This document shows, in pieces, positions 7,556 through 30,160 of a stretch of 64,000 nt of DNA. Origin of the DNA: an uncultured Chlorobiaceae bacterium (GTDB taxonomy: Bacteria > Bacteroidota > Ignavibacteria > UBA10030 > SZUA-254); contig CAYGZC010000028.1 of the NCBI GenBank assembly GCA_964354225.1, positions 4,536 through 68,535 of the forward strand. Direction: 5' to 3'. The position numbers and the translations under genes were made by a program. Position 1 is the stretch's first letter. Every line of letters starts with the position of its first letter. The notes under the pieces are model-generated. The model saw only the letters and a program-made list of their open reading frames with translations. It was not told the origin of the DNA and searched no databases.

Positions 7556-7607
7556 TTCTTTCATTTGTCATCACCACGTGTAAAGAAAAAAGAAACGAAC
7601 AAGTCTT

Positions 7608-12706: not shown

Positions 12707-12821
12707 TAACAATTCAAAGGGTAAAATTAAAAAGTAAAAGTTAAGAGCAAAATTATATTGACAAATTACCATCAACAACTGACAAGCGACTAATGACTAT
12801 TGACCAAAATAGAGGCGATTC

Positions 12822-13730: not shown

Positions 13731-13846
13731 TAGATTTCGGATTGTGGATTTTAGATTTGCGATTTTCAATTTGTTCACAATGAAAATCAAGTCAGTTAAA
13801 CGCAAAAAAATAAGCTCCGTTAGGAGCGACACAAGAAAAGAATAAA

Positions 13847-15058: not shown

Positions 15059-15147
15059 GATATTTAGTATTGAAAAGATTAGAATGATGAAATAATTCAT
15101 CACGATGACGATAGATCATAAAGCAAACAACAAAGAACAGAGAACAA

Positions 15148-15630
15148 TTGACCAATGACGAAGTAAAAGGCAAAATAGTAGCCATTAACATCAGCAAGAA
15201 AAAGGGGATACCCAAAACAAATGTTCAGCAAGCGACGTTGATTGAAAATTATGGTATAGAAGGAGATACTCATGCAGGCAACTGGCACCGGCAGATAAGT
15301 TTACTCGGAATAGAAAGTATCAAGAAGATGCGAGAAGAAGGATTGAATGTCCGTCCCGGTGCTTTTGCAGAAAACATAACTACCGAATTTCTTAATCTAC
15401 CCAAACTTAACATTGGTGATAAAATAACTATAGGAGACTCAGTTTTGGAAATAACTCAAATTGGTAAAGAGTGTCACACTAAATGTGCAATTTATTATCA
15501 GGCAGGCGATTGTGTGATGCCGAGGGAGGGAATCTTTGCCCGAGTATTAAAAGGTGGAATTATTAAAGTTGATGATGATCTAAAAATTATTACAGAAAGA
15601 GAATCCATCTCAGCAGGAGTATCGGACTAA
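15148..15630 (+). CDS. MOSC domain-containing protein
   Basis: 160 aa with GDTHAGNWHRQISLL, which resembles small MOSC proteins. The track start is a TTG. Sits within the Moco operon. Confidence 0.75.
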   Translation: MTNDEVKGKIVAINISKKKGIPKTNVQQATLIENYGIEGDTHAGNWHRQISLLGIESIKKMREEGLNVRPGAFAENITTEFLNLPKLNIGDKITIGDSVLEITQIGKECHTKCAIYYQAGDCVMPREGIFARVLKGGIIKVDDDLKIITERESISAGVSD

Positions 15631-15637
15631 TGGATTT

Positions 15638-16231
15638 ATGGAATTAAGAGATGATATTGTCGGTGTTATTCTTGCCGGCGGAAAAAGTTCAAGAATGGGA
15701 ACAGATAAAGCATTGCTGGAGTTCAAAGGAAAACCTTTAATCCAACATATCGCTGAAACATTGAAGTCCGTCTTCAATCATGTTATTATAATTTCTGATT
15801 ACAAAGAACAATATAAATTTCTTAGCTTACCTATATATGACGACATTTATAAAAATTGCGGACCGCTGGGAGGGATCCACTCAGCTTTTGTAAATTCAAA
15901 AAATGAAAATATCTTCATCGCATCATGCGATTTACCATTCATAAATTCTCTTGCAATTCATTATCTCCTTGATCATCATTCTCAGAGTGAGGCAACGATG
16001 TTCTCGATTAATCAACGAACTCAACCCTTGTTCGGTTTGTATAATCGATCATGTTTTTTGAAGCTAGAAAATCATCTAAAACAAAAACAGTATTCTGTTC
16101 TGCAATTCTTAAATAATATCCCCACGAATGTTATCCAGTTAAAATCTTCTCTCGCAATTGCCTTTTCAGGGAATTTAAAAAACATAAACACCCCTGCAGA
16201 TTACCGAGCGATTGCTATAAAAATAACATAA
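15638..16231 (+). CDS. mobA: Molybdenum cofactor guanylyltransferase
   Basis: N-terminal GVILAGGKSSRMGTDKALL nucleotidyltransferase motif. 197 aa, in the Moco operon. Confidence 0.85.
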   Translation: MELRDDIVGVILAGGKSSRMGTDKALLEFKGKPLIQHIAETLKSVFNHVIIISDYKEQYKFLSLPIYDDIYKNCGPLGGIHSAFVNSKNENIFIASCDLPFINSLAIHYLLDHHSQSEATMFSINQRTQPLFGLYNRSCFLKLENHLKQKQYSVLQFLNNIPTNVIQLKSSLAIAFSGNLKNINTPADYRAIAIKIT

Positions 16232-16350
16232 GTGTTTTACACCCCCCAAAAAGTCCACGAAATAGCTTGTTTTCGGGGTATGTGTGATATAACCCAGCAT
16301 GTTATTAAAGATTTTTGTATCTTTAATAACGAAATTTGGATTGTAGCAAA

Positions 16351-17862
16351 ATGAGGGTTATCGTAGAAAAATTATTTCCATCTTTAGGTAAAAAAATTGC
16401 CTTTGCAGTTGTTCTCGTCTTTCTGATAGCCGGGGGTGCATTCGTGTATTTTGCGCATCAGACAGGATATACAATGCTTCAAAAACAAACACGAGCCAAA
16501 GCTCATGGGGTTGCCGAATTTGGAAAGGCGATCTTAGAGCATATCATGTTAGGCGGTCGGAATGACCATTTGCAATCTGCACTCAAAAGAGCGGTGGCAT
16601 CGGGACAAGCAAAAGATTTTCTAATTCTAACTGATGATGGTACGATCGTATTAAAAGCAGACAGCAATCAATACATTGATAGATTGCCAATAGAGAAATT
16701 TGTTGAATTACCTCAATTCCCCGGAGATCGTTTTCTTTCATTAAAACAAAATGACTCGTTATACGAATTTATCGTAACGCCGATTCAAAAGAAATCTGAA
16801 TGCTATAGCTGCCACCCTGAAAAAGAAACGACGAAGGGATTCCTCGCTGTCAATATCTCTATGGATGATGTTCGAGCGGCCTCATTGGAACACCGGACAA
16901 TAAATCTGGTGATGACAGTTGTTACTTTTTCGGGCTTAGGAATTATCTTGTACCTTGCGTTGATGTTCCTTGTAATTCGCCCGGTGAAAAAACTAAATAG
17001 GCAGATGATTGATGTGGAAGAACAAATCGAAAAATATGAAGAAGGAAAACAGGTACAATTTTCAGAACTTGAACTGCCACACTCGAAAGACGAGATTGCA
17101 GGATTGCTGGCCGCGTTCAACAAACTCATCAAGCGATTAAATAAAACTCATAATAAATTACACGAAATGCACCAATCTCAGCTTGAGCATGCGGATCGCT
17201 TGGCAACAACCGGTGAGATGGCGGCAAGCATTGCTCACGAGATCAAAAATCCAATAGCTGGTGTGCTTGGAGCACTACAAGTTTTCGATAGTGAAACTCC
17301 GCATCACGATGAACGGAAAATAATCCTTGCCGAAATGATGATTCAATTACAGCGTGTCAACAATACCGTCAATGATCTTCTGAATTATGCAAGACCCACC
17401 CCGCCTGTTTTTGGGGAAGTTTATATTAACGAGTTAATCGAAAAAACGCTTTCTTTGATATCGCAGCAAATCAAGAACGAACACATCGTTATTAAAAAAG
17501 AGTTGATGGCTGAACGTGTAAGCATCATAGCCGATGGGAAACAATTACAGCAAGTTTTATGGAATATCCTGCTTAATGCAATTCAGGCGATGGATGGAAA
17601 GGGCGCACTTTCAGTTACATCATATCAAAAAGATTCATCTGTGATAATTTTAATTGAAGATACAGGCAAAGGCATTCTTCCCGAGAATCTTGAAAGCATT
17701 TTCAAACCATTCTTCACAACCAAACATAAAGGGACCGGACTTGGAATGACAATATCGAAGCGTATAATTACACAACATAAAGGGACTATAATCATTGATA
17801 GTGAGCCCGGAAAGGGAACTATCGCAACAATAATGTTACCACCACAACAAAATCACAGATGA
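16351..17862 (+). CDS. Sensor histidine kinase with a CxxCH motif in the periplasmic sensor domain
   Basis: Two TM helices flank a ~150-aa periplasmic domain that contains CYSCH (16801-16815). H-box ASIAHEIKNPIAG, N-box NILLNAIQAM, G-boxes EDTGKGI and GTGLGM. I preferred the ATG at 16351 over the TTG at 16336. Confidence 0.85.
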   Translation: MRVIVEKLFPSLGKKIAFAVVLVFLIAGGAFVYFAHQTGYTMLQKQTRAKAHGVAEFGKAILEHIMLGGRNDHLQSALKRAVASGQAKDFLILTDDGTIVLKADSNQYIDRLPIEKFVELPQFPGDRFLSLKQNDSLYEFIVTPIQKKSECYSCHPEKETTKGFLAVNISMDDVRAASLEHRTINLVMTVVTFSGLGIILYLALMFLVIRPVKKLNRQMIDVEEQIEKYEEGKQVQFSELELPHSKDEIAGLLAAFNKLIKRLNKTHNKLHEMHQSQLEHADRLATTGEMAASIAHEIKNPIAGVLGALQVFDSETPHHDERKIILAEMMIQLQRVNNTVNDLLNYARPTPPVFGEVYINELIEKTLSLISQQIKNEHIVIKKELMAERVSIIADGKQLQQVLWNILLNAIQAMDGKGALSVTSYQKDSSVIILIEDTGKGILPENLESIFKPFFTTKHKGTGLGMTISKRIITQHKGTIIIDSEPGKGTIATIMLPPQQNHR

Positions 17863-17868
17863 GTTTAT

Positions 17869-19239
17869 ATGCGGGGTGAAACAATCTTAATAGTCGATGA
17901 TGAAAAGTTAATCCGATGGACGCTACTCCAGGAACTTTCTAAAAATGGTTTTAGAATTCTTGAAGCAATTAACATTAAAACGGCGTTTGGCATTATCAAT
18001 GAAAACGAACCAGACCTAATTATTCTCGATCAAATGCTGCCCGATGGAACGGGTATCGATCTTCTTGAGAAGATGAAAGGCGGTGAGAGCATGCTGCCCG
18101 TGATTATGTTAACCGCGGTAGACCGCTCGAATATTGCTGTACAAGCGATGAAGCTCGGGGCTTTCGATTATGTTACAAAACCGGTAAATATTGAAGAACT
18201 CAAAATTGTTATTGAGAAGGCCCTCGAAACTACAAAGTTAAAAAGACAAGTTGCAAGTTTTTTAAAACAGCAAGAAACAAAGTGCGGTTTGTATGGACTT
18301 CTCGGTTCATCACCTCCTATGAAGAAGGTTTGCGAACAAATCAGGAAGGTTGCCCAAAGCAGCGGAACCACAGTATTGATAACTGGGGAGACTGGTACGG
18401 GGAAGGAGTTAGCTGCAAAGGCAATACACTTTCTAAGTGAGCGGCGAGATAAACCGTTAATTCCGGTAAACTTCTCGGCATTGACAGAAACAATTGTTGA
18501 AAGTGAATTATTCGGACATGAGAAAGGTGCATTCACAGATGCGAGAAGTCAAAGAAAGGGTATCTTTGAAATCGCAGATGGTGGAACCATCTTTCTTGAT
18601 GAGATAGGTGACACCTCTCCAAAAATTCAAGTGCGGTTACTCCGCGTGCTTGAACAAAAAACTTTTCAGCGAGTTGGTGGCACGGCAGAAATAACTGTCG
18701 ATATTCGTATCTTTGCGGCAACCAATCAGCCAATTGAAAAATTAGTAAAAGAAGCAAAATTTCGTTCAGATCTTTATTACCGGCTCAATGTTGCAAATAT
18801 ACATATGCCTCCACTCAGAGAGCGCGAGGATGACATTATCTTGTTGGCGGAATTTTTCTTGCATGAGTTTAATGCAACTTTCCATAAAAATTTTAAAGGT
18901 TTATCGGAGGATACTAAAAAACTATTCCTTAGTTATCACTGGCCCGGGAATGTACGAGAGCTACGCAATGTTGTAGAAAGAGCTGTCTTAATGGATGAAG
19001 GTGACTATATCTTTTCACATCAGGTCGAGCTGGGCCATCTTCATCATTTAAATCATGAATCACATTCTCCAAGACTGACGCATAATAATGATAACATTTC
19101 TCTCGGTGATGTTGAAAAAGACACAATTATTAGGGCACTTGAAAAAACGAATTATAATCAATCCCAAGCTGCAAAATTACTCAAGATAAGTCGCGATACA
19201 CTCCGTTATCGGATGAAAAAACATAACCTGCTCACTTAG
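17869..19239 (+). CDS. Sigma54-dependent response regulator (NtrC family bacterial enhancer-binding protein)
   Basis: REC domain (ILIVDDE...LDQMLPDG), AAA+ domain with Walker A GETGTGKE and GAFTDA loop, and a C-terminal Fis-type HTH (QSQAAKLLKISRDTLRYRMKK). Confidence 0.9.
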   Translation: MRGETILIVDDEKLIRWTLLQELSKNGFRILEAINIKTAFGIINENEPDLIILDQMLPDGTGIDLLEKMKGGESMLPVIMLTAVDRSNIAVQAMKLGAFDYVTKPVNIEELKIVIEKALETTKLKRQVASFLKQQETKCGLYGLLGSSPPMKKVCEQIRKVAQSSGTTVLITGETGTGKELAAKAIHFLSERRDKPLIPVNFSALTETIVESELFGHEKGAFTDARSQRKGIFEIADGGTIFLDEIGDTSPKIQVRLLRVLEQKTFQRVGGTAEITVDIRIFAATNQPIEKLVKEAKFRSDLYYRLNVANIHMPPLREREDDIILLAEFFLHEFNATFHKNFKGLSEDTKKLFLSYHWPGNVRELRNVVERAVLMDEGDYIFSHQVELGHLHHLNHESHSPRLTHNNDNISLGDVEKDTIIRALEKTNYNQSQAAKLLKISRDTLRYRMKKHNLLT

Positions 19240-19347
19240 AGAAGGTCCAACATGTTCATCTTGCGCTAAATAACGCACCGAATAATCGCTTCCTATTTAT
19301 TATCCCGCAAAATTATTTCCTTTCTTAAAGAGATGACATATTCATTA

Positions 19348-19363
19348 TGGCATAGACTTTGCA
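19348..19363 (+). promoter_or_regulatory. Sigma54-type -24/-12 promoter upstream of the single-domain response regulator
   Basis: TGGCAT-AGACT-TTGCA, one mismatch to TGGCAC-N5-TTGCW. It lies about 30 nt upstream of the ATG at 19392. Confidence 0.6.
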
Positions 19364-19391
19364 ATTTCACAGGTGAATATCTAAGAAACAG

Positions 19392-19808
19392 ATGAGTTAT
19401 ACCACAAACAATAATCAGAAAAAGATAGACGGCAAAGTTCTTCTTGTTGAAGATGAAAACCTGATCGGATGGTCGATCGCCACCGCTCTCCGGAGAGAGG
19501 GGTATGCTGTAACATTGGTAGAGTCGGGTGAGGAAGCGATAGAGATCATATCCTCAACAAAGTTCGATATCGTGATTACTGATCTCAAACTTCCTCAGAT
19601 CAACGGCTTTGAAGTGGCAACAGTCGTCAAATCCCAATGCTCCTCAATACCGGTAATTATGATCAGCGCACAATCCAGCCAGACAACTCAAGATGTAAAA
19701 GTGCATCAGGCAGTTGATCGCTATATCGAAAAACCATTTGATCTAAATGAAATAATTAAAATTACTCATCGACTGATTGGCCGTAGTTCAGCAAAAGTTG
19801 TTCGCTAA
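19392..19808 (+). CDS. Single-domain (CheY-like) response regulator
   Basis: 138 aa consisting of a REC domain only (VLLVEDENL...VITDLKLPQINGFE...IEKPF). Confidence 0.85.
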   Translation: MSYTTNNNQKKIDGKVLLVEDENLIGWSIATALRREGYAVTLVESGEEAIEIISSTKFDIVITDLKLPQINGFEVATVVKSQCSSIPVIMISAQSSQTTQDVKVHQAVDRYIEKPFDLNEIIKITHRLIGRSSAKVVR

Positions 19809-19831
19809 TATTCGTAATCTATAACTTGAAC

Positions 19832-19868
19832 TGTGTGATTTAACCCATCGTTTGGGTTCTATACCCCA
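19832..19868 (+). promoter_or_regulatory. Candidate enhancer (UAS) with TGGGTT/AACCCA half-sites
   Basis: TGTGTGATTTAACCCA (19832-19847) followed by TGGGTTCTATACCCCA (19853-19868). It lies 70-105 nt upstream of the sigma54 promoter at 19939 and is related to the perfect palindrome at 22866. Confidence 0.45.
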
Positions 19869-19938
19869 AAGAGAGAAATCTTTCCTCCCAAAAGACAGAA
19901 TATTCTTATTTTTTTACCCGTTTAATACAACATCCAAA

Positions 19939-19954
19939 TGGCACGCTGCTTGCA
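19939..19954 (+). promoter_or_regulatory. Sigma54-type -24/-12 promoter upstream of the first T9SS multiheme cytochrome
   Basis: TGGCAC-GCTGC-TTGCA, a perfect match to the consensus core, about 60 nt upstream of the ATG at 20018. Confidence 0.75.
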
Positions 19955-20017
19955 ATTCTTTCTGGAAAACCCAAATTAATCCACAATTTTATGAAACCTT
20001 TCATAAGGAGACACATC

Positions 20018-22756
20018 ATGAGATATGTTCGGTTACTATCTCTTTCATTAATTCTTATCCTTTGTATAGTTGGTCTGGCATTATCACAAATACAAACAGC
20101 CAGAATCATCATCAAAGGTATATCACCTGATATCAAAGTAGCCGGTCGATACGATGCTTTGTCAAGCGGTTTACCTAATGTCGGTAAAGGGCAAAAAGTG
20201 TGGTTAGAGGCATTAGCGCTTTATACCACAGGTACTGTTAATAATAGCTGGATCGATACTATAATTACTGAAACTTGGTCGGTGACAAATCCTCCGGGTG
20301 GTTTTGTAACGATCACACATACCGATACTACAACTTATTTTATTCCAGATAGAACGGGCCAATATAAAGTAGATCTCTCTGTGACCACAAGTCATGGAAC
20401 CGCAACGGCGTCTGTCTACATTAACTCAGCTTACTGGGTTGGTGTTGGAAACGTTACCGGTCCTGTTTCAAATCCAGCATCCTGCGGATTTGGGTGCCAC
20501 AGCGGTAAAGTAAGTGAGTGGCAGGAAACCCCTCACGCCGGGATCTTCTCTTACAACGTAGATAGCAGCGATCACTATTCTACAAATTGTGTTTATTGCC
20601 ATACTGTTGGTTACGACGCAGCTGCAACAGCTGTAAACGGTGGGTGGGACGATGTGCGTGCGGCACTTGGTTTCGTTATTCCGAGTCCACAACATCCCGG
20701 AGTGTGGGATTCAATCAAAACAAATTTCCCAACCCTTGCTAATGTTTCAAATATACAGTGCGAAAACTGCCACGGACCGGGTAGCTTGCATTTTAGTATG
20801 ACAGATAAAAACCAGATTGCTGCCAGTCTCTCTGCCGATGTATGTAATCAATGTCACGGTAGAAAATTTGGTCACATCAAGGGTTATGAATGGGGAAATA
20901 CTGCTCATGCGAAATCGGTTGGAGAACCTGGTGAAATTGAACATATGAACAGCACAAGCTGTGCACAATGCCATACAGCTCAGGGTTTCATCACCGAAAA
21001 TTTAGGCCATGGTACTTCCGGTGCACCGTATGCCGATGTTCAATCTGTTACATGCGCCGCATGTCATGATCCACACAGTGACGAGAATCCATCGCAATTG
21101 CGAGTTGCATCAGTTGGTGATGCATGTACTGGTTGCCATAAGACACGTATAAGTTCACGCGGCTTGCACCACTCACTGCAGGGTCCGATGTTCGCCGGTG
21201 TTACAGGAACACCATTTACATTGGGTCAAACCGGTATAGGTACTTGGGGTGGCTTCCAATTCCCAGGTTACCAATATCGGAATTCTTCTCACAGCAACAT
21301 TGCAGGTAAATGTGCTGAGTGCCATATGGCTACAATTGCCGGAGCGGATACGCTTCTCATTCCAGGTATTCCATTTAGCCAGTATCAAGGTAAGCTTGGT
21401 GGTCACTCATTTAAAGTCGCTTATGATAATGGTACACCGGATGATGCAATAGATGATATACTCAATCCGGTTGGATGTAAAGAATGTCATGGTACCGTAT
21501 CATTGGAATTTGTTGAACAAAGCCAGGATAAGATTAAGGCATTGCTTGAGGAACTCAGAGTACTTCTGCCACATGCGACATCAGGTGATACAACTCAGCC
21601 TCTAACTCACACTAGTTCGAGCCTTACAACAATCCAAAAAGGTGCAGCATACAACTACTACTTCGTTAGCTATGATGGCAGCTATGGCGTGCACAATTAT
21701 GAGTACGCTGCTGGATTACTCCGTTCTTCAATCGAAATGGTGAAGCTCGGTGCCGGTGCTGCTTCTATCGCTTCAATTAAAGACGTACCAAACGATCAAG
21801 GTAAGCAAGTCCAGGTTGTGTGGAATAAGTTCCCGGCTGAGAGCTATCCTGATCCAGTTGTCAATTACCTCATTCTACGACAAGACTCTGCCGGTATGTT
21901 GCTTGGTAAAACTGTAGCAGCGACATCATTCCGTGAGATGCTTTCGAAAGTTACCGACGGTTCACGCGTCACCCTGAGCGGTAGTGTTTGGACAAAGGTT
22001 GGCGAGTTCAAGGCAATCAAACAACCGAAGTACTCGCTTATGGTTCCAACACTTTTTGATTCGACGATCATTGATGGACAAAAACTCACAACATTCGATG
22101 TGGTTGGATATACCGCAGCAAATGTTGTATATGCTTCAGCGGCTGCGACTGGGTACTCTGTAGATAACCTGGCGCCGGCAGCTCCAACAGGATTCGCATT
22201 ACAAAGCGTAGCTGGTGTGGTCAACATCTCGTGGGAATCTTCTACAGATGCGGACTTCAAATATTTCGCAGTCTACAGAGGTGTTACACCAAACTTCAAT
22301 GCTCATGGTACACCACTTGCAACAGCTACAGGCACCCAGTATACGGATGCTTCAATTCAGCTTGGACGTACATATTACTATAAGCTCACGGCGTTTGATT
22401 TCTCCGGAAACGAGAGCAACTTCACCGATGAGAAATCTATTATGGTTACCAGTATTGAAGAAGGTAACGGCATCCCAATAGAGTTTGCATTGCGTCAAAA
22501 TCATCCGAATCCATTCAATCCAACAACATCAATTCGATATGAATTGCCGCAGGCAGCTCATGTGGAGATTAGCATTTACAACTCACTTGGCATGCTTGTA
22601 ACAACATTGGTAGATCAGGATGAACAAAGTGGCTATCATACAATCGAGTGGAATGGAACAAATAATTCTGGCAACACCATTGCAAGCGGAATTTACATTT
22701 ACAAAATGGAAGCCGGAACATTCTCATCCATCAAAAAGATGTTGTTCATCAAATAG
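20018..22756 (+). CDS. Secreted multiheme cytochrome c (8 CxxCH plus 1 CxxxCH) with Ig/Fn3-like domains and a T9SS C-terminal sorting domain
   Basis: Signal peptide MRYVRLLSLSLILILCIVGLALSQ. I chose the ATG at 20018, preceded by AAGGAGA. Heme motifs: CGFGCH, CVYCH, CENCH, CNQCH, CAQCH, CAACH, CTGCH, CAECH, CKECH. The C-terminus QNHPNPFNPTTSIRYELP...GIYIYKMEAGTFSSIKKMLFIK is typical of T9SS type A tails. Confidence 0.85.
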   Translation: MRYVRLLSLSLILILCIVGLALSQIQTARIIIKGISPDIKVAGRYDALSSGLPNVGKGQKVWLEALALYTTGTVNNSWIDTIITETWSVTNPPGGFVTITHTDTTTYFIPDRTGQYKVDLSVTTSHGTATASVYINSAYWVGVGNVTGPVSNPASCGFGCHSGKVSEWQETPHAGIFSYNVDSSDHYSTNCVYCHTVGYDAAATAVNGGWDDVRAALGFVIPSPQHPGVWDSIKTNFPTLANVSNIQCENCHGPGSLHFSMTDKNQIAASLSADVCNQCHGRKFGHIKGYEWGNTAHAKSVGEPGEIEHMNSTSCAQCHTAQGFITENLGHGTSGAPYADVQSVTCAACHDPHSDENPSQLRVASVGDACTGCHKTRISSRGLHHSLQGPMFAGVTGTPFTLGQTGIGTWGGFQFPGYQYRNSSHSNIAGKCAECHMATIAGADTLLIPGIPFSQYQGKLGGHSFKVAYDNGTPDDAIDDILNPVGCKECHGTVSLEFVEQSQDKIKALLEELRVLLPHATSGDTTQPLTHTSSSLTTIQKGAAYNYYFVSYDGSYGVHNYEYAAGLLRSSIEMVKLGAGAASIASIKDVPNDQGKQVQVVWNKFPAESYPDPVVNYLILRQDSAGMLLGKTVAATSFREMLSKVTDGSRVTLSGSVWTKVGEFKAIKQPKYSLMVPTLFDSTIIDGQKLTTFDVVGYTAANVVYASAAATGYSVDNLAPAAPTGFALQSVAGVVNISWESSTDADFKYFAVYRGVTPNFNAHGTPLATATGTQYTDASIQLGRTYYYKLTAFDFSGNESNFTDEKSIMVTSIEEGNGIPIEFALRQNHPNPFNPTTSIRYELPQAAHVEISIYNSLGMLVTTLVDQDEQSGYHTIEWNGTNNSGNTIASGIYIYKMEAGTFSSIKKMLFIK

Positions 22757-22810
22757 TATCAAACAATATCCCGCCATTTGAAGACGGTTAAGCTATAACT
22801 CTATCTCAAT

Positions 22811-22846
22811 AGCGCAGGTGATTTAGTTTGCCTGTGCTTTTTTATT
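22811..22846 (+). terminator. Intrinsic terminator after the first cytochrome gene
   Basis: AGCGCAGG pairs with CCTGTGCT (8 bp including one G-U), followed by TTTTTTATTT. Confidence 0.6.
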
Positions 22847-22865
22847 TATGCTTATAAAAGTTAGT

Positions 22866-22881
22866 TGGGTTATATAACCCA
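22866..22881. promoter_or_regulatory. Perfect 16-bp palindrome, candidate enhancer-binding-protein site
   Basis: TGGGTTATATAACCCA equals its own reverse complement. It lies 106 nt upstream of the sigma54 -24 element at 22987. Confidence 0.55.
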
Positions 22882-22986
22882 CTCAATTATGAAATTCTCT
22901 TCAATTTAGTGATTTATTCTGGAGGTAAATCGGTTAAATTTGTATGATTTTAAGAATATGTCTCATCCCTACAACTATTCTTGAAT

Positions 22987-23002
22987 TGGCACATGAGTTG
23001 CA
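22987..23002 (+). promoter_or_regulatory. Sigma54-type -24/-12 promoter upstream of the second T9SS multiheme cytochrome
   Basis: TGGCAC-ATGAG-TTGCA, a perfect consensus core, about 130 nt upstream of the ATG at 23134. Confidence 0.75.
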
Positions 23003-23133
23003 ATTTATTCATTCACCTTGTATCTTATTTAAGTTTTACAATTGAGGTAACTTGCATTTTTTCGAATAAAGCTTTATAAGTGTCCAAGTAAATAATTCAC
23101 AATTTGTCACTTTAATTACAGAAAGGAGTCAAT

Positions 23134-24666
23134 ATGAAACTTGCCACGATACTATTACTTCTGTTGATGGTCATCTTCGGTTTCTCTCATCCTATTTATG
23201 CTCAGACCTACACCGGCGTTTACAATCCAATCCTGGGTTGCAGCACAACGGGATGCCATACAGTAACTGGTAAATCACAATTTACGCAATGGTCGTCAAC
23301 TCTTCATGCCCAGGCATATGATTCAATCACATTCATTCAGAAAAATCCAGACTGTTTACCTTGTCATACAACTGGTTGGGATACAACAAAACACATTGAT
23401 GGTTTTTCAGATTTCTATCCGCCGGTTACTCACAACGATTCTGTTGGTATTGACCAAATGAAGAATGTTCAATGTGAAGCTTGCCATGGTCCGGTTCAAT
23501 TTGGCGTGAATCATGGTCAGGCTTCTACCATTAATCCAACCGCTGAAAAGTGCGGATCGTGTCATCAAGGTGAACACCATCCATACTACAGCGAATGGGC
23601 AACGACAAAACATTCTATGTCCGACACGAACGCGTCCGGTTTTCTAACGGGGGAATTTCGCAACGATCCAAACTGTTCGGGTTGTCACACATATCAAGGT
23701 TTTGTTCAATTCGTTAACGATACCAGCTTGGCTCCAAATGTTACCCCACCCGGAAGTGAAGCGCTGCCGATTGTTTGTACAGCGTGCCATGATCCGCATT
23801 CAAATGCGAATCCGGGACAACTACGGAAATCACCAAGCGCTCTTTGCCAGAAATGTCATAACCCGGAATATGATCCCGACAGTCCGACACCTGACGGAAC
23901 AACAATACATCACTCAACGGCATATATGTTAGAAGGGAAAGGCGGATATCAATATGCTGGATACACGTATGAGAATTCATTCCATGGTTTGGTGGCTATA
24001 GACAAATGCGTCACGTGCCATGTCGTGATGACTCCGTTTATCAGCAGCTCCCAGCCGGCATCCACGGGTCATACATTCCAGCCCAAGGGAATAAAATGTT
24101 TCGAGTGTCATGCCGATTTTGATACCCTGTCAACTTCATTTAATTACCGTAATACTCAAACAAAGATTGACAGTTTGAGTGCCGTTCTCGGTGCGAAATT
24201 AGCGGCGGCAACGCATGTAGATTCTTCATCTGTTGAATTCTACCGCGCTAAGTTCAACTACGACTTCGTCCAGGCAGAAGGTAGTCATGGCATTCACAAC
24301 ACGAAATATGCAAAGGGATTATTGGAATCTGCGATTGCCAATTTCACTCCATCAACTTCCGTTGAGATTATTGATAACGGTATCCCGACCAGTTTTGAGC
24401 TGAGACAAAACTATCCTAATCCGTTTAATCCGTCGACAAATATTAGTTTTGCTCTACCGTCGGCAGAGTTTGTGCGGATCCAAATTTTTGACGTGTTGGG
24501 TAGTTTAGTTACAACCTTACTCAATCGAGATTTAACTGCCGGTAATTATAAAATCGCATGGAATGGTGTCGATCAAAATGGCGCATCTGTCACAACCGGA
24601 GTTTATCTCTACAAACTTGAGACGGGCTCGTTTACAGAAACAAAGAAAATGTTGCTGATGAAATAG
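23134..24666 (+). CDS. Secreted multiheme cytochrome c (8 CxxCH plus 1 Cx4CH) with a T9SS C-terminal sorting domain; paralogue of 20018-22756
   Basis: Signal peptide MKLATILLLLLMVIFGFSHPIYA. Motifs: CSTTGCH, CLPCH, CEACH, CGSCH, CSGCH, CTACH, CQKCH, CVTCH, CFECH. Blocks shared with the 912-aa protein include CTACHDPHS/CAACHDPHS and HGIHNTKYAKGLL/YGVHNYEYAAGLL. C-terminal QNYPNPFNPSTNISFALP...GVYLYKLETGSFTETKKMLLMK. Confidence 0.85.
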   Translation: MKLATILLLLLMVIFGFSHPIYAQTYTGVYNPILGCSTTGCHTVTGKSQFTQWSSTLHAQAYDSITFIQKNPDCLPCHTTGWDTTKHIDGFSDFYPPVTHNDSVGIDQMKNVQCEACHGPVQFGVNHGQASTINPTAEKCGSCHQGEHHPYYSEWATTKHSMSDTNASGFLTGEFRNDPNCSGCHTYQGFVQFVNDTSLAPNVTPPGSEALPIVCTACHDPHSNANPGQLRKSPSALCQKCHNPEYDPDSPTPDGTTIHHSTAYMLEGKGGYQYAGYTYENSFHGLVAIDKCVTCHVVMTPFISSSQPASTGHTFQPKGIKCFECHADFDTLSTSFNYRNTQTKIDSLSAVLGAKLAAATHVDSSSVEFYRAKFNYDFVQAEGSHGIHNTKYAKGLLESAIANFTPSTSVEIIDNGIPTSFELRQNYPNPFNPSTNISFALPSAEFVRIQIFDVLGSLVTTLLNRDLTAGNYKIAWNGVDQNGASVTTGVYLYKLETGSFTETKKMLLMK

Positions 24667-25804: not shown

Positions 25805-28800
25805 ATGCGCAATGTATATTTTGCAACGCTTTGTGTTTTTATTTTTATGTTCACATTTATCTGTACTTTAAAATATCAGGAATCCTCACCAACCGCTGAG
25901 CAGGGTGAAGGCGGGAAGAATGGCAGGTCGGGTGCCCTTGAGGCATTGGAATTCTGGACACGCTCGCGTGCATATCCCGAAAACGATATTCCACAAGATA
26001 AATATTTCAGAGCATTTCAATCTGCAAAGGTAAAGACGCGCGAAATCTCAAGTCTGCTAAGCGCAGCAAGTATTTGGGATCCCATCGGACCTCTCAATCT
26101 TCAGGGCAGAACCAAAAGTGTTGCAATAAATCCTATGAATCCCAACACCGTCTATGTTGGAACGGCAAGCGGGGGATTGTGGCGATCATACACCGGAGGT
26201 CTGGGTGGCGATTGGCACCAGGTGAAACTTGGTCATCCCGCTTTAGGCATCAGTGCAATCGTAATTGATCCGACAGATTCAAACACAATTTATCTTGGCA
26301 CCGGAGAAGTGTACCGGTATCAGAATTCAATGGTTGGATTAGTAGTGCGAACAACACGTGGGAGCTACGGCATCGGTATTCTTAAAACAATTGATGGAGG
26401 CACTACATGGACTAAAAGTCTCGATTGGTCCTATGAGCAGCAAAGAGGGATTCAATCATTAAAGATGAATCCGCTAAATCCCCGAACTCTCTGGGCGGCG
26501 ACATCAGAAGGAATTTATAAATCCACCAATGCCGGTTCAACCTGGGAAGAGATGTTATTCGGTTATATGACGCAAGATATTGTTATTCATCTTACTGACA
26601 CAAATAAAGTTCTATGCACAATAGGAAATTTTTACCCGAGTGTTACATTCTATACTACCGATGGGGGAACAAACTGGTCAGCTTCACCGTTACCGAGTTA
26701 CACAGGTAAAACCACACTCGCAATATATCCAGTCAATCCAAATGTTGTCTATGCAAGTGCTGCAGACAGTACGAACGGTGTGGGAGCTCTTTATCGAACC
26801 ACTGACTTTGGAATAAGCTGGACAAAATTAAAAGAGTATTTCAATACTGGTCAGCTCTTAGGAGTTCAAGGTTGGTACTCACATTATGTTGCAGTCTACC
26901 CAACTGATTCAAGCATCATTGTACATAACGGTGTTGGCAGAAGTAAATCAACGAACGGCGGTATCACATTTTCTGGTGTTTCTAGTGGATATTCGGATAA
27001 TCATTCTTATGCTATCCATCCCACAAATCCAAATATTTTATATGCCGTCAATGACGATGGCATATATCGTTCTACAAATTTCGGCAGCTCTTACACGAAC
27101 ATTGGTTTTGGATTGCAGTCGGGACAAATTTATAATGGATTTTCATGTTCAACAATAGATTCTCTTCTTGCACTTGCTCAATCGCAAGATCATATTCCGG
27201 GTTACCGGTACTTAGGTTCTTCAACCTGGGATCACGGCAGCGCGGTGGATGAAGCCGGCTGGAATGCCATTACTCCATCTAATGATAACATTATGTATTC
27301 AGTGTATCGATTTGGACAAGCGCTTTACAAATCTATAGATCGTGGCGAATCTTTCTTTTATGTGGGCGGCTTTAGCTCGGGTGCATGGAATTCTCCCATC
27401 GTGGTTTCTCCTTCTAATCCGAATATTCTTTACGTGGGCACAACCAGAATTTATAAATCTATTGATGGTGCAGGAAGCTGGAACAGCGGTTCTTATCTTG
27501 ACGGTAATCCAGCTCTATCTATGGCAGTCTCTGCAATGAATTCCGATACCGTTTATGTTGGTATGGCGCCGCAAGTAAATCGGGCACATATTTATTGCAC
27601 AACGAATGGAGGAACATTATGGACGAACGTGACTGGTTCCCTGCCCGATAGGTATCCAATCGACATGGCTGTTGATCCTACCAATTCAAAAATAGTTTAT
27701 GTAGCATTTGGAGGATTCGGCACGGGACATCTATACAAATCTACCGATGCTGGGACAAGCTGGAGCAATATCACCGGAACACTGCCTGATGCACCAACAA
27801 CTGCAATTGCGATTGATCCTCTTTACCCAAATATCGTTTATGTCGGAAATGATATCGGTGTTTATGTAGCAACCAATAGCGGTTCAACCTGGTCAGGATT
27901 CAGTGCTGGGCTACCGGATGCAGTCATTGTTGCCGATTTGACTATTTCTCCGTCAAACCGAGCGCTGAGAGTTGCAACACATGGTAATGGTATATGGGAG
28001 CGGAAACTTCTTAATGAGTTACCGGAAACTTACTTTGATTATAAAGCACTCACTGTAAATTATCCAGTCGATGGAACCGTTTTAAATGTTGGGTTGCCAC
28101 TTTCATCAATGAAGGCATCCTTCCGAAGTCTTAGTTTACAGGCACATCCGGATTCATTCGATGTTAAATATCGAATCCTTCTGGATAACACAGAAGTTTT
28201 CTCAAAAACAAAACGGATTTTAGGTTTAGTATCGGCAGAGAACAGAACTGTAACATTTGATGGAAGTTATGCTCCTATAGAAGACGGAACGTATATAGTT
28301 CAGGCAATCACACTCGCCAGTGATGATAACAATAATAACGACACAGTACAGAGTACCTTCAATATTATTGCACCATCCACTGTTTCATACTGGACAGCAA
28401 CCAAGATTCATTCTCCATACACAGAGATTACCAGCGGTTCACCCGGACCATCTGGCGATGATAACTGGATGAGAACAGAAATTCCATTTTCATTTACTTA
28501 TGATAATCACACTTACGATTCGGTTCTTATTAATACCAACGGTTGGCTGGAATTAGGTGCCGGAACACGCGGATTTCTTATGGGTTTATCAACAGCAGAG
28601 CAGATCGGGAGTTATTTCACTTATTCACTCGCAACTACAGATCATCCGACAAAAGCACTCGGTCCGTGGTGGACTGACCTCAGTGCTGCACCCGGGCAAA
28701 TTACTTACAAAACTATCGGCTCGGCACCAAATCGAACATTCATTGTGCAATGGAAAGATGTACCTGCTTACTGCTGCGACGCCGCAACTACCACGACTCT

Positions 28801-30160
28801 TAATTTCCAGGTGATGCTTCATGAAACAACTAATCTTATCGAGTTCTGCTACGGTTCAGTATATGCCGGTGTATTGTCATCTTATTATGGGGCATCAATT
28901 GGCTTGAAAGATTATGCGGGCGGTGATTATCGTTTCTATGATGTCTATAGTCAACGTACAGGATTGATAGTTGATCTCAATACAAGTCTTAATCCGCTAA
29001 CCGATTGGCCCGGACAGGATAACTGCTATCAGATTACAACAAACCCTAATGGAATTAGCTTGGCATTAACAAGTGATTGGAACCTGATCTCTCTTCCTGT
29101 GAATAGAAGCAATTATTCTATTGCATCCATTTTTCCAACAGCGGTTTCCGGTACATTGTTCCAATATACAACATCGTATCAAACGGCAGATTCAATAATG
29201 CCGGGGGGCGGCTATTGGTTAAAGTTCCCGGCATCGATGAACCAATTCATCATCGGTTCAGAGATGCCATCGGTTTCTGTATCATTAAATGCCGGCTGGA
29301 ATATCATCGGCTCTGTCGATCATGAAGTAACCGCACCAAGCGGAGGGATAATTACAAGCAGCGTGTTCGAGTTTAATGGCTCGGGATACTCTGAAGTATC
29401 GACGTTAAAACCCGGTAAGGGATACTGGGTGAGGGCCAGTTCAACAGGCGTTCTGACACTTGGACCACAGAATGAGCCCAAACCATCAGCAAAGAAAGTT
29501 GAAGCGAATTTCACGATGACTATCACGGATAAATTGGGACGGAAGCGGGAGCTTTCACTTTCGGAGAATCAGGTAAACCTTGAGCGATATGATTTACCGC
29601 CGTTACCGCCTGCTGAAGTATTCGATGTTCGCTTCACCAGCCAGCGAATGCTTGAATCATATCCGAAAGAGATAAATGAAGAAACATTATGTCCAATCAA
29701 GATGCAGTCGCCGGTATATCCACTGACGATAACATACAAGACCCAGAATGCAGGCAGTAAAGGATATGTTATAGATGAAATGTTTAACGATAAAATCACG
29801 GGTTCTCATAATCTCTCTGGTGAAGGAAAGATAATAATCAACAGCGGTGATGAGAGAACACTTCGATTGAGAGTAATCAGTGGAAAACAAATTCCGACTC
29901 ATTTTGCACTGATGCAGAATTATCCGAATCCTTTCAATCCGATCACAGCAATCTCGTTTGATCTTCCGGCGAAAAGCACCGTTAGCTTAAAGGTGTACGA
30001 TATAATTGGGAAGGAAGTGATGACGCTGGCTAATGGAGAATACGAAGCAGGCTCATATGCTGTTCAAGCCGACTTAACCAATCTGGCAAGCGGAATGTAT
30101 TTGTACAGGCTGAGAGTGGGCACATTCACTGATGTGAAAAAGATGATACTCGCAAAGTAA
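25805..30160 (+). CDS. Large secreted Asp-box (BNR)/sortilin-like beta-propeller protein with a T9SS C-terminal sorting domain
   Basis: 1451 aa. It has about a dozen SxDxGxTW-like Asp-boxes (e.g. TIDGGTTWT, STNAGSTWE, TTDGGTNWS, TTNGGTLWT, STDAGTSWS). C-terminal QNYPNPFNPITAISFDLP...GMYLYRLRVGTFTDVKKMILAK. Confidence 0.8.
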   Translation: MRNVYFATLCVFIFMFTFICTLKYQESSPTAEQGEGGKNGRSGALEALEFWTRSRAYPENDIPQDKYFRAFQSAKVKTREISSLLSAASIWDPIGPLNLQGRTKSVAINPMNPNTVYVGTASGGLWRSYTGGLGGDWHQVKLGHPALGISAIVIDPTDSNTIYLGTGEVYRYQNSMVGLVVRTTRGSYGIGILKTIDGGTTWTKSLDWSYEQQRGIQSLKMNPLNPRTLWAATSEGIYKSTNAGSTWEEMLFGYMTQDIVIHLTDTNKVLCTIGNFYPSVTFYTTDGGTNWSASPLPSYTGKTTLAIYPVNPNVVYASAADSTNGVGALYRTTDFGISWTKLKEYFNTGQLLGVQGWYSHYVAVYPTDSSIIVHNGVGRSKSTNGGITFSGVSSGYSDNHSYAIHPTNPNILYAVNDDGIYRSTNFGSSYTNIGFGLQSGQIYNGFSCSTIDSLLALAQSQDHIPGYRYLGSSTWDHGSAVDEAGWNAITPSNDNIMYSVYRFGQALYKSIDRGESFFYVGGFSSGAWNSPIVVSPSNPNILYVGTTRIYKSIDGAGSWNSGSYLDGNPALSMAVSAMNSDTVYVGMAPQVNRAHIYCTTNGGTLWTNVTGSLPDRYPIDMAVDPTNSKIVYVAFGGFGTGHLYKSTDAGTSWSNITGTLPDAPTTAIAIDPLYPNIVYVGNDIGVYVATNSGSTWSGFSAGLPDAVIVADLTISPSNRALRVATHGNGIWERKLLNELPETYFDYKALTVNYPVDGTVLNVGLPLSSMKASFRSLSLQAHPDSFDVKYRILLDNTEVFSKTKRILGLVSAENRTVTFDGSYAPIEDGTYIVQAITLASDDNNNNDTVQSTFNIIAPSTVSYWTATKIHSPYTEITSGSPGPSGDDNWMRTEIPFSFTYDNHTYDSVLINTNGWLELGAGTRGFLMGLSTAEQIGSYFTYSLATTDHPTKALGPWWTDLSAAPGQITYKTIGSAPNRTFIVQWKDVPAYCCDAATTTTLNFQVMLHETTNLIEFCYGSVYAGVLSSYYGASIGLKDYAGGDYRFYDVYSQRTGLIVDLNTSLNPLTDWPGQDNCYQITTNPNGISLALTSDWNLISLPVNRSNYSIASIFPTAVSGTLFQYTTSYQTADSIMPGGGYWLKFPASMNQFIIGSEMPSVSVSLNAGWNIIGSVDHEVTAPSGGIITSSVFEFNGSGYSEVSTLKPGKGYWVRASSTGVLTLGPQNEPKPSAKKVEANFTMTITDKLGRKRELSLSENQVNLERYDLPPLPPAEVFDVRFTSQRMLESYPKEINEETLCPIKMQSPVYPLTITYKTQNAGSKGYVIDEMFNDKITGSHNLSGEGKIIINSGDERTLRLRVISGKQIPTHFALMQNYPNPFNPITAISFDLPAKSTVSLKVYDIIGKEVMTLANGEYEAGSYAVQADLTNLASGMYLYRLRVGTFTDVKKMILAK

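Follow-up and report, generated by a model that had tools for sequence, protein, structure and literature searches.

Nine-heme cytochromes of the OcwA/OmhA type with type IX secretion tails, putative surface terminal oxidoreductases beside sigma-54 promoters and a heme-c sensor kinase

OcwA (TherJR_2595, PDB 6I5B) is a nine-heme terminal reductase on the cell surface of Thermincola potens, in which H281/282 and H380/381 sit over two five-coordinate hemes (PMC6703420, PMC9250108). Its activity is described in vitro only, with no knockout, and includes the reduction of nitrite and the turnover of hydroxylamine (PMC6703420). OmhA (PDB 6QVM) is an 11-heme S-layer cytochrome and extracellular iron reductase of Carboxydothermus ferrireducens. 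OcwA has already been placed among nonahemes of Gram-negative bacteria (Gavrilov et al., PMC7829351), the localisation of which is not discussed there. Type IX secretion (T9SS) may occur in Ignavibacteriota and other FCB phyla according to reviews (PMC11285876). The window analyzed here, a stretch of 64 kb, encodes two cytochromes, A and B, that are fairly likely to be nine-heme members of the OcwA/OmhA clade with a type IX tail, exported by T9SS to act outside the cell as terminal oxidoreductases that are fed via a porin-cytochrome (Pcc) conduit and controlled by sigma-54.

The ORF list, heme motifs, domain matches and structural models place cytochrome A (912 aa) at 20018..22756 and cytochrome B (510 aa) at 23134..24666, both on the + strand. 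Public gene calls start A at M10 (position 20018), in agreement with the original prediction, which described two paralogous cytochromes with a Sec signal peptide, nine heme motifs and a T9SS tail; this description is confirmed. The signal peptides are recognizable by eye (A aa 1-22, 20018-20083, MRYVRLLSLSLILILCIVGLALS; B aa 1-23, 23134-23202, MKLATILLLLLMVIFGFSHPIYA; + strand), are each followed by Q, and contain no lipobox. In A, an N-terminal Ig-like domain (aa 25-138, 20090-20431) and a nine-heme OcwA-like domain (aa ~155-578, 20480-21751) are followed by a beta-sandwich (aa 584-713, 21767-22156), a FnIII-like domain (aa 727-809, 22196-22444) and the T9SS type A tail (aa 830-912, 22505-22753). 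B consists of a nine-heme OcwA-like domain with a C-terminal three-helix bundle (aa 24-405, 23203-24348) and a T9SS type A tail (aa 418-510, 24385-24663). The two beta-sandwiches before the tail of A are seen in the AF2 model (pLDDT 86.4), and the top Foldseek matches of this region are tandem FnIII arrays, which bears out the proposed stalk of Ig/Fn3 spacers between the heme domain and the tail. The N-terminal Ig-like domain of A was absent from the earlier account. The heme domains of A and B share 30% identity over 440 aa (E 6e-37) and the tails share 47%; the two are old paralogues, with a separate orthologue series for each.

Both proteins contain eight CxxCH motifs and an atypical first motif, C-GFG-CH (CX3CH) in A and C-STTG-CH (CX4CH) in B, so the predicted count of nine stands. 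Of 70 B-family sequences, 60 have an ordinary CxxCH at the first site; in the A family the spacing there is variable. A heme-motif scan found no CxxCK in A or B. Among PDB entries, A matches OcwA (6I5B, E 5.6e-9) and OmhA (6QVM, E 7.6e-6), and the B-family profile matches the same two (E 3.9e-37 and 2.9e-34), with the octaheme nitrite reductases (~1e-12) and NrfA far behind. Structure prediction and comparison of the heme domain, which had been suggested with the original prediction, returned OmhA as the best Foldseek match of the B model (E 7.7e-8). B also reaches the PF22113 cut-off (52.9 bits) via generic heme motifs. H148/149 and H259/260 of B align with H281/282 and H380/381 of OcwA, and H148, H149, H259 and H260 are kept in 68, 51, 68 and 53 of 70 family members; in A, the N-terminal His-His pair lacks its first His. 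Also present are a GSxG(I/V)HN motif and the C-terminal three-helix bundle. The heme domain of A and B belongs to the OcwA/OmhA clade.

The C-termini of both proteins exceed the cut-offs of the T9SS-tail models TIGR04183 (A 32.7 bits, B 38.8 bits; cut-off 23) and PF18962 (A 28.4 bits, B 33.1 bits; cut-off 27), and their extreme ends hold the motifs QN(H/Y)PNPFNP, G(I/V)Y(I/L)YK and KKML(F/L)(I/M)K. Failure on such models would have counted against the original prediction. The tail is modelled as a beta-sandwich, with matches to the substrate CTDs in SprA complexes 8GL8, 8GL6 and 8GLK, and also to PorZ and PorU. A third tailed protein in the window, a sortilin/BNR-like protein of 1451 aa (25805..30160, + strand; PF18962 40.9 bits), is matched with an E-value of 6e-35 by an HMM built from the cytochrome tails, which shows that the organism uses the same tail type. 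The architecture of heme domain plus tail-type C-terminal domain (PF18962 and/or PF13860) appears conserved across the 120 listed homologues each of A and B, barring a few that are truncated or without a tail match. The few organism names among these homologues are Ignavibacteriales, Melioribacteraceae, Caldithrix, KSB1, Bacteroidota and Rhodothermia. Among the 150 best heme-domain representatives the tail is found on 36, including the 11 closest.

Several relatives have genes that could account for how electrons cross the outer membrane. In L003 and L090, a Pcc-type cluster lies directly 3' of the B-type gene and encodes a c554-like tetraheme cytochrome, a porin-like protein of 424-426 aa, a 14-heme cytochrome of 402-404 aa and a lipoprotein cytochrome. 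The pcc cluster of Ignavibacterium album is IALB_1837-1840, in which IALB_1838 has 400 aa and 14 heme motifs (PMC4245776). The 14-heme cytochrome of the relatives matches IALB_1838, and their genes for a porin-like protein and for outer-membrane and associated periplasmic cytochromes have counterparts of like kind in the I. album cluster. A-type genes in relatives lie 3' of clusters of multiheme cytochromes, NHL propellers and barrel-like proteins. The Pcc clusters beside B-type genes are therefore a candidate electron route across the outer membrane; no porin-cytochrome cluster is present within the 64-kb window. The original prediction set T9SS delivery apart from the Mtr/Pcc and type II secretion routes. 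That contrast between T9SS and porin-cytochrome systems confuses the export of a protein with the conduction of electrons: the terminal cytochrome is probably delivered by T9SS, and the electrons would still pass along a Pcc conduit. The suggested link to the cytochrome b/11-heme module (63-2617) finds no support: 17 kb, with a type I restriction system and molybdenum cofactor genes, separate it from A and B, the module lacks a sigma-54 promoter, and none of the relatives examined has a cytochrome b gene near the A/B-type pair.

The genes 5' of the cytochromes encode a two-component system. The sensor histidine kinase (508 aa, 16336..17862, + strand) is arranged as TM1, periplasmic domain, TM2 and the Pfam domains HAMP, HisKA and HATPase, and its periplasmic domain contains a single CxxCH (CYSCH, aa 156-160, nt 16801-16815). 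A CxxCH occurs at the same place in the kinases adjoining B-type cytochromes of L087, L089 and L092. Kinase sensors beside B-type genes of relatives score 35.9 and 30.4 bits against PF21563 (cut-off 27) and match PDB 3B42 over the CxxCH, and the sensor in the window has a weak PF21563 match of 12.5 bits against the same cut-off. The kinase gene is followed by an NtrC-type sigma-54 enhancer-binding response regulator (456 aa, 17869..19239, + strand; Response_reg, Sigma54_activat 223 bits, HTH_8), with 37% identity to the L092 activator, and a single-domain response regulator (138 aa, 19392..19808, + strand; Response_reg 86 bits). A short receiver gene is at the same position in L087, L089 and L092, with sequences that are not alignable. 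The kinase/NtrC/cytochrome module recurs in distant relatives. This regulatory module of heme-c sensor kinase, NtrC-type activator and sigma-54 promoters had been missed in the first reading of the locus.

Perfect sigma-54 (-24/-12) matches occur only twice on both strands of the 64 kb, where 0.12 are expected, and these are upstream of A (TGGCACGCTGCTTGC, 19939..19953, + strand, 65 nt 5' of the ATG) and of B (TGGCACATGAGTTGC, 22987..23001, + strand, 133 nt 5' of the ATG). A sigma-54-like promoter matching 9/10 consensus positions (TGGCATAGACTTTGC, 19348..19362, + strand) is 30 nt 5' of the single-domain response regulator gene, and the equivalent place in L089 has a 10/10 match. A-like starts have a match 52 nt upstream in L004 (10/10) and L001 (9/10), and B-like starts have one 130-131 nt upstream in L001 (9/10) and L004 (8/10). 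These promoters are kept even though L001 and L004 have a different kinase beside the cytochromes, with an OmpR-type regulator in L001. A terminator-like hairpin 3' of A (22811..22838, + strand), with an 11-bp stem followed by the T-run TTTTTATTT, implies that A and B are transcribed separately. A weak candidate for a regulator-binding site, TGTGTGATATAACCCA (16281..16296, + strand), is 40 nt 5' of the kinase gene and has 2 mismatches to TGGGTT-N4-AACCCA; only 5 such sites occur in the 64 kb, 4 of them within the cytochrome/kinase gene group. Two tandem palindromic sites (TGTGTGATTTAACCCA; TGGGTTCTATACCCCA; 19832..19868, + strand) are 70-105 nt 5' of promoter A, a placement that would fit an upstream activator site. 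A perfect palindrome (TGGGTTATATAACCCA, 22866..22881, + strand), unique in the window where 0.06 are expected, is 106-121 nt 5' of promoter B. The palindromes are not conserved in the relatives examined.

Since the heme domain is homologous to that of the experimentally surface-located OcwA and OmhA, a surface redox role, as originally proposed, is the natural reading. The apoproteins would be exported by Sec and cut before Gln by signal peptidase I, and the hemes would be attached in the periplasm. The folded holo-cytochromes would then be recognized through the type A C-terminal domain, passed through the T9SS translocon, and either tethered to the surface with the tail cleaved or released. 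The two FnIII-like domains may hold the heme domain of A off the membrane. Outside the cell, the proteins would serve as terminal oxidoreductases, acting on Fe(III)/Mn(IV) minerals, humics, flavins or similar extracellular acceptors, with electrons supplied by a porin-cytochrome conduit encoded elsewhere in the genome, much as MtrCAB feeds OmcA in Shewanella. The adjacent two-component system probably turns on the expression of A and B. The kinase may use a covalently bound heme to sense the periplasmic redox state (or a small ligand) and phosphorylate the NtrC-type activator, which would act on the separate sigma-54 promoters in front of the two cytochrome genes and, probably, on that of the small receiver gene.

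The substrate of A and B is left unfixed by homology because OcwA also reduces nitrite and hydroxylamine. They could instead be secreted or surface enzymes for soluble N or S compounds (nitrite, hydroxylamine, sulfite, tetrathionate), or for detoxification, rather than outlets to solids. The heme domain belongs to the NrfA/c554/MccA/HAO superfamily, His-His pockets are kept over two presumably five-coordinate hemes, OcwA is active on nitrite and hydroxylamine in vitro (PMC6703420), and one source names a homologue cluster as ammonia-forming nitrite reductase (P0098). However, OcwA turns nitrite over very slowly (kcat 1 per min), CxxCK is absent from A and B, and the closest solved relatives, by >20 orders of magnitude in E-value, are two surface iron reductases. 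Export past the outer membrane would also separate such a reductase from its periplasmic donors, and relatives adjoin Pcc clusters; a soluble substrate is considered unlikely. Electron flow could also be reversed at the same location, with uptake from Fe(II), reduced humics, cathodes or partner cells, since multiheme wires are reversible, direction cannot be read from sequence alone, and the Mtr/Mto and Pcc families include reducers and oxidizers. This is quite improbable given that the hosts of OcwA and OmhA reduce Fe(III) and that reports on cultured Ignavibacteria describe them as reducing iron, arsenate or nitrate (PMC7399161).

Two further readings concern where the proteins end up. If the tail were cleaved without lipid attachment, A and B would be released as soluble or matrix-bound electron carriers, comparable to PgcA or OmcZ, instead of being tethered. 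Many type A cargoes are released in Flavobacterium, and B has no stalk between its heme domain and tail; the FnIII stalk of A fits mainly a tethered protein, although the sequence itself gives neither tether nor release, and this outcome is given a low probability. It is very improbable that the proteins stay in the periplasm with the C-terminal beta-sandwich acting as a structural domain of Ig or FlgD-like type instead of a working secretion signal. PF13860 (FlgD_ig) does score above PF18962 on both tails (A 47.2 vs 28.4 bits; B 33.5 vs 33.1), and no T9SS core genes are seen within the 64-kb window. However, FlgD_ig and T9SS-tail matches often occur together among the homologues listed, both tails exceed the curated TIGR04183 cut-off and have KKMLxxK at the very end of the protein, and they are close to the tail of the non-cytochrome neighbor and structurally match translocon-bound CTDs.

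Surface terminal oxidoreductases delivered by T9SS would combine features of several described systems. The periplasmic heme-c PAS-like sensors GSU0935/GSU0582 (PDB 3B42) are matched by the B-adjacent kinase sensors; in Geobacter these domains are in chemotaxis receptors, whereas here they are in histidine kinases, with a divergent sensor in the window. RpoN and PilR control electron-transfer genes in Geobacter, and an NtrC-type activator with -24/-12 promoters is found here too. T9SS type A cargoes (gingipains, RemA, NucA, and glycoside hydrolases of Bacteroidota/Melioribacter) share with A and B a Sec signal peptide, a TIGR04183-passing beta-sandwich tail, Ig/FnIII spacers before the tail, and, in keeping with the 'Q-rule' (PMC5837995), a Gln behind the signal peptidase site. 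These cargoes have so far been proteases, adhesins, nucleases and CAZymes, whereas A and B are cytochromes. To our knowledge, no c-type cytochrome has been demonstrated as a T9SS cargo; in the literature searched, no covalently heme-loaded respiratory cytochrome is described as such a cargo, and no paper links T9SS with multiheme cytochromes. MtrC/OmcA with MtrAB in Shewanella and the OmcB-type Pcc systems of Geobacter and I. album follow the logic proposed here, in which a trans-outer-membrane conduit leads to an outward-facing multiheme cytochrome. However, MtrC, OmcA and OmcB are lipoproteins with a staggered-cross decaheme fold unlike that of A and B, and type II secretion brings MtrC/OmcA to the surface. 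OmhA has two additional N-terminal hemes and is S-layer-associated, whereas A and B have a T9SS sorting tail. Like A and B, OcwA has nine heme sites, a C-terminal three-helix bundle, the GSxGxHN motif and both distal His-His motifs, and its motifs can be aligned with theirs in order and spacing along the full length of the heme domain. It differs in its monoderm host without a T9SS tail, in an internal beta-sheet domain (aa 75-156) that is mostly absent from A and B, in the first heme motif, and in lacking the Ig and FnIII domains of A. The tails, sigma-54 promoters and heme sensor kinase of A and B thus point to an undescribed way of displaying respiratory cytochromes on the surface of Ignavibacteria-like bacteria.

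The two adjacent genes A (20018-22756, plus strand) and B (23134-24666, plus strand) encode multiheme cytochromes of 912 and 510 aa, each with a C-terminal T9SS type A sorting domain (the tail). The start of the A open reading frame follows the public gene calls; an alternative ATG at 19991 would lengthen the protein by 9 residues. Both open reading frames are complete. Each protein has eight CxxCH motifs plus one atypical motif at the heme 1 position, which is CGFGCH (CX3CH) in A and CSTTGCH (CX4CH) in B. In 60 of 70 B-family members the heme 1 site is a CxxCH. Almost all cysteines of A and B fall within heme motifs. A Sec signal peptide is indicated at both N-termini by inspection of the sequences and by the N-terminal helix in both AF2 models. 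The predicted signal-peptidase site exposes a Gln in A (aa 23-24; nt 20084-20089) and in B (aa 23-24; nt 23200-23205), and Q24 is almost invariant across the B family. This agrees with the "Q-rule" of pyroglutamate N-termini, for which a Q-value of 77% is given for Ignavibacterium album (PMC5837995). The two proteins are 30% identical in the heme domain (E 6e-37) and 47% identical in the tail, and they are old paralogues. The original prediction of two paralogous proteins with signal peptides, nine heme-attachment motifs and T9SS tails is thus borne out, with the refinement that the spacing of the ninth heme site is non-standard. The C-terminal motifs it quoted are present at the extreme C-termini of both proteins.

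The tail is a domain of about 90 residues, and the model match stops 3-4 residues before the stop codon in both genes. Both C-termini exceed the curated cut-offs of the T9SS sorting-domain models, with TIGR04183 scores of 32.7 bits for A and 38.8 for B (cut-off 23) and PF18962 scores of 28.4 and 33.1 bits (cut-off 27). In the model that AF2 gives for B, the tail folds into a seven-stranded beta-sandwich at aa 422-508, which Foldseek matches with a probability of 1.00 to 8GL8_D, 8GL6_D, 8GLK_D, PorZ (5M11) and PorU (6ZA2). An NCBIfam match to the PorU "sortase" was set aside, since it is partial, covers the tail and is far under the cut-off. In the AF2 model of A (pLDDT 86.4) the signal peptide is followed by an Ig-like domain (aa 25-138), the heme domain (about 155-578), a beta-sandwich (584-713), an FnIII-like domain (727-809) and, after a short linker of low confidence, the tail (830-912). 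Tandem FnIII arrays are the top Foldseek matches of A. Both results confirm the Ig/Fn3-like spacer domains that had been proposed to act as a stalk. Taken together, the sequences and structure models make the assignment of A and B as probable T9SS cargo well supported.

Used as a single query against solved structures, A finds 6I5B, the OcwA of Thermincola potens, at E 5.6e-9, and 6QVM, the OmhA of Carboxydothermus ferrireducens, at 7.6e-6. A profile from 70 B-type sequences reaches 6I5B at 3.9e-37 and 6QVM at 2.9e-34; its next-best matches, at about 1e-13 to 1e-12 or weaker, are octaheme nitrite reductases, NrfA, HAO, MccA and c554. OmhA is also the top Foldseek match of the B model (pLDDT 87.4), and OcwA is not among its top matches. 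Since AF2 predicts heme proteins without their hemes and such models are approximate, the clade placement rests on the sequence profile and not on Foldseek. The whole A model was set aside as a guide to the heme domain because the FnIII stalk dominated its matches. By profile, the heme domain of A and B is therefore assigned to the OcwA/OmhA clade of the NrfA/c554/MccA multiheme superfamily, ahead of the octaheme nitrite reductases. Among Gram-positive iron reducers, OcwA and OmhA are the two extracellular terminal reductases with a characterised structure, and their hallmark is two five-coordinate hemes with a His-His motif over each (PMC6703420; PMC9250108). The non-ligating distal histidines of OcwA are H281/H282 and H380/H381 (PMC9250108). 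HH148/149 and HH259/260 of B align with these motifs, and H148, H149, H259 and H260 are conserved in 68, 51, 68 and 53 of the 70 B-family sequences. In A the first site reads G-H and the second is HH384/385. The distal His-His feature is thus complete in B and partial in A. Both models also contain a C-terminal three-helix bundle (helices 338-357, 367-382 and 390-403 in B; 496-516, 538-551 and 558-578 in A) that aligns with the OcwA C-terminus and carries the GSxG(I/V)HN motif. OcwA sits within a subclade of nonahemes from Gram-negative bacteria (Gavrilov et al., PMC7829351), and A and B belong to that population.

Other multiheme families were considered for A and B. The MtrC/OmcA/UndA decahemes differ from them: they carry a lipoprotein signal, arrange ten hemes in a staggered cross and have two flanking beta-barrel domains. 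The MtrC/MtrF domain PF22113 scores 52.9 bits in B and 25.4 bits in A against a cut-off of 30, so only B passes. Inspection of the sequences found no lipobox in A or B; both have nine motifs, and their heme domains are modelled as all-helical without split barrels. Because fold, heme number and signal type disagree, membership of B in PF22113 is rejected, and OcwA and OmhA are themselves unrelated to MtrC (PMC6703420). Assignment to the pentaheme nitrite reductase NrfA would draw on PF02335 matches of 13.8 and 14.6 bits, which are below the cut-off of 24.1, and on an NF008339 match of 12.3 bits in A only against a cut-off of 595. No CxxCK motif was found in A or B, and this family was also rejected. 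A partial UshA_like_PCGU NCBIfam match to the c554-like segment is far under its cut-off and was discarded.

The fusion of this heme domain with a T9SS tail is widespread. For each of the two proteins the best 120 homologues are all multiheme proteins, with identities of 38-73% to B (mostly over the full length) and 33-85% to A, and nearly all contain PF18962 and/or the co-hitting PF13860. The sources named for a few of these best 120 are Ignavibacteriales, Melioribacteraceae, Caldithrix, KSB1, Bacteroidota, Rhodothermia and "Deferribacteres"; the closest named homologues of A are from Ignavibacteriales, at 76% identity. A-type and B-type genes adjoin in several loci of relatives, namely L001, L004 and pairs of homologues with longest contigs of equal length. 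When 1.84 billion cluster representatives were searched with just the heme domain, 1901 relatives had E<=1e-3, and 55 had E<=1e-30. Most members of this larger family terminate directly after the helix bundle. The tail is present in 36 of the best 150 of the 1901 relatives, including the 11 closest, so the tailed form is one well-populated branch of the larger family. Some tailed relatives have 13-18 hemes; the tailed homologues P0241 (1061 aa), P0049 (887 aa) and P0242 (943 aa) have 18, 16 and 13 CxxCH motifs, with the extra heme modules N-terminal of the OcwA-like module. A profile search of the genome collection with the B-family alignment and the pattern N[YF]PNPFNP returned 80 loci, mostly with tail-only similarity (query residues ~400-510), and these were set aside as uninformative on cytochrome neighbourhoods. 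Locus L088, which has a B-like gene with a group II intron reverse transcriptase directly upstream, also encodes two unrelated-looking T9SS-tailed cytochromes of 722 aa and 472 aa (196-4633) beside a MarR regulator. T9SS tails on cytochromes therefore extend beyond the OcwA-like family.

The window also has a third tailed protein, a sortilin/BNR-like protein of 1451 aa (25805-30160). The HMM built from the cytochrome tails finds its tail at E 6e-35, which indicates that the organism uses this tail on unrelated proteins. In locus L091 a 1094-aa BNR protein lies beside a 1737-aa T9SS-tailed protein (13494-22171). The presence of a large sortilin/BNR-type protein near the cytochromes in both places may reflect a recurrent neighbour or a coincidence. 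None of the T9SS core genes (sprA/sov, porK/L/M/N, porU, porV) occurs within the 64-kb window. Since three tailed genes are found there, the organism probably has a T9SS, and reviews indicate that the system may occur in Ignavibacteriota and other FCB phyla (PMC11285876; PMC5837995).

The genes upstream of A suggest how the cytochromes may be regulated. They encode a histidine kinase (16336-17862), an NtrC-type sigma-54 activator with a Sigma54_activat domain (17869-19239) and, directly before A, a single-domain receiver (19392-19808). Perfect TGGCAC-N5-TTGC sigma-54 promoter matches are found at 19939, 65 nt before A, and at 22987, 133 nt before B. These are the only two perfect matches on both strands of the 64 kb, where 0.12 are expected. 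A 9/10 match lies 30 nt upstream of the receiver gene, and a terminator-like hairpin after A argues for a separate promoter for each cytochrome gene. L001 and L004 have 8-10/10 matches 52 nt before the A-like start and 130-131 nt before the B-like start, so that the predicted promoter positions are conserved in these relatives. Three distant relatives (L087, L089 and L092), with 42-45% identity to B, have a short receiver gene before the B-type gene and a kinase and sigma-54 activator flanking it; in L089 a perfect sigma-54 match precedes the receiver-cytochrome pair. The window receiver has no alignable sequence in common with that of L092, so the conservation is one of position only. All four kinases (the window, L087, L089 and L092) have a single CxxCH at the same place in the periplasmic sensor domain. 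Of these sensors, those of L092 and L089 pass PF21563, and the window's own is divergent at 12.5 bits. The L092 sensor aligns across the CxxCH with PDB 3B42, a PAS-like sensor domain with heme c from a Geobacter chemoreceptor. A palindrome, TGGGTT-N4-AACCCA, has a perfect copy 106-121 nt upstream of promoter B, and degenerate copies lie upstream of both promoter A and the kinase gene. With <=2 mismatches it has five matches in the 64 kb, and four of the five are in the kinase-to-cytochrome gene group. The palindrome was not found in the relatives and is therefore kept only as a local candidate operator. Going by these sequence features, a redox- or ligand-sensing heme kinase would drive sigma-54-dependent expression of the cytochromes.

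The window starts with a cytochrome b of 359 aa (63-1142), an 11-heme cytochrome with a C-terminal membrane anchor (to 2617) and a CcmF/NrfE-type heme lyase (2630-4873). The first NCBIfam match of the cytochrome b is a generic cytochrome b6 model; the second is ExtP, the selenite/tellurite-operon cytochrome, at 206.8 bits and below the cut-off of 290. The three genes are plausibly a quinol-oxidising module with its own lyase. The original prediction joined the cytochrome b and 11-heme genes to A and B in one extracellular respiration pathway. The two groups are separated by a complete type I restriction-modification system (HsdR, HsdM, HsdS; 5171-10312) and by molybdenum cofactor genes. Shared promoters or synteny between 63-2617 and the A and B genes were looked for and none were found; likewise, no relative examined has a cytochrome b gene near the A/B-type pair. 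A single pathway for the two groups is speculation. The molybdenum cofactor genes form a full set (11717-16231, 30395-31003 and 57748-58806) of MoaA, a MoaC-MogA fusion, MoeA, MOSC, two MobA-like genes and XdhC, yet the window contains no molybdoenzyme gene. An ECF sigma factor and zf-HC2 anti-sigma pair, followed by a 350-aa protein without a family match, lies on the minus strand at 34999-36332.

The relatives, not the window itself, suggest how electrons might pass through the outer membrane. In L003 and L090 four genes come directly after the B-type gene. The first encodes a c554-like tetraheme protein and the last a lipoprotein cytochrome with a CX4CH/CxxCH domain; the others encode a 424-426 aa signal-peptide protein of porin-like sequence without a Pfam match and a 402-404 aa cytochrome with 14 CxxCH. 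The 14-heme cytochrome matches IALB_1838 (400 aa with 14 heme motifs), which belongs to the pcc cluster IALB_1837-1840 of Ignavibacterium album (Shi et al., PMC4245776). The other three genes correspond in kind to the rest of that cluster (porin-like protein, outer-membrane cytochrome and associated periplasmic cytochrome). The A-type genes of L004, L091 and L001 come after clusters with DmsE/GSU2203-like multihemes, which in L004 and L091 also include NHL propellers and 544-545 aa barrel-like proteins. Two more genes are conserved in L001 and L004 between the multiheme cluster and the A-like gene, about 2 kb upstream of the latter. One encodes a 360-aa AhpC/TSA-redoxin protein with TPR repeats, and the other is small, on the minus strand, and has a weak match to a c7-type heme family. 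They may provide a thiol-redox aid to heme attachment and are absent from the window. The contrast drawn earlier between T9SS and the porin-cytochrome route needs correction, since genes of porin-cytochrome complex (Pcc) type adjoin the B-type gene in L003 and L090. In the simplest model, a Pcc-type conduit would carry electrons through the outer membrane to a T9SS-delivered OcwA-like cytochrome.

Of the first interpretation, the T9SS-cargo part stands on sequence and structure models, and the pathway claims were either unsupported or corrected. The full mechanistic model for A and B is considered somewhat probable, and its main uncertainty lies in the physiological substrate and in secretion. 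Both building blocks are already known, the heme domain family as the OcwA/OmhA clade and the tail family as the T9SS type A CTD, and automatic database labels call such proteins either "T9SS type A sorting domain-containing protein" or "multiheme c-type cytochrome". Within the literature searched, no link was found between T9SS tails and multiheme cytochromes or extracellular electron transfer, and its papers on Ignavibacteria, on bioanode communities and on pcc clusters make no mention of secretion tails. The combination, for which no description was found there, would give an OcwA-type terminal cytochrome another route to the surface and tie it to a conserved heme-kinase/sigma-54 switch and, in relatives, to Pcc conduits.

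A mechanistic understanding of extracellular electron transfer exists for just a few members of the Proteobacteria and Firmicutes. Bioanodes and iron-rich sediments commonly harbour Ignavibacteria and their relatives, whose genomes are known to contain large cytochromes and Pcc clusters; the route of the terminal cytochrome to the surface has so far not been addressed in them. If T9SS delivers these proteins, an OcwA-like domain with a type A tail would be a signature that flags candidate electroactive bacteria across several little-studied phyla. It would also define a new class of T9SS cargo, namely folded proteins with many covalent cofactors. The conserved heme-c kinase/sigma-54 module offers a handle on the signal that activates the pathway.

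In the proposed model T9SS would replace the protein-localisation step and not the porin-cytochrome wire. Two routes are otherwise used for surface multiheme cytochromes: Proteobacteria rely on lipoprotein/T2SS delivery, and Firmicutes anchor the proteins in the cell wall or S-layer. It is tentatively proposed, at slightly less than even confidence, that T9SS may be a third route throughout the FCB superphylum, with OcwA-like cargo fed by Pcc conduits and switched by heme-c kinases and sigma-54. Such an arrangement would give Ignavibacteriota, Calditrichota, KSB1 and some Bacteroidota a complete and hitherto unrecognised system for extracellular respiration.
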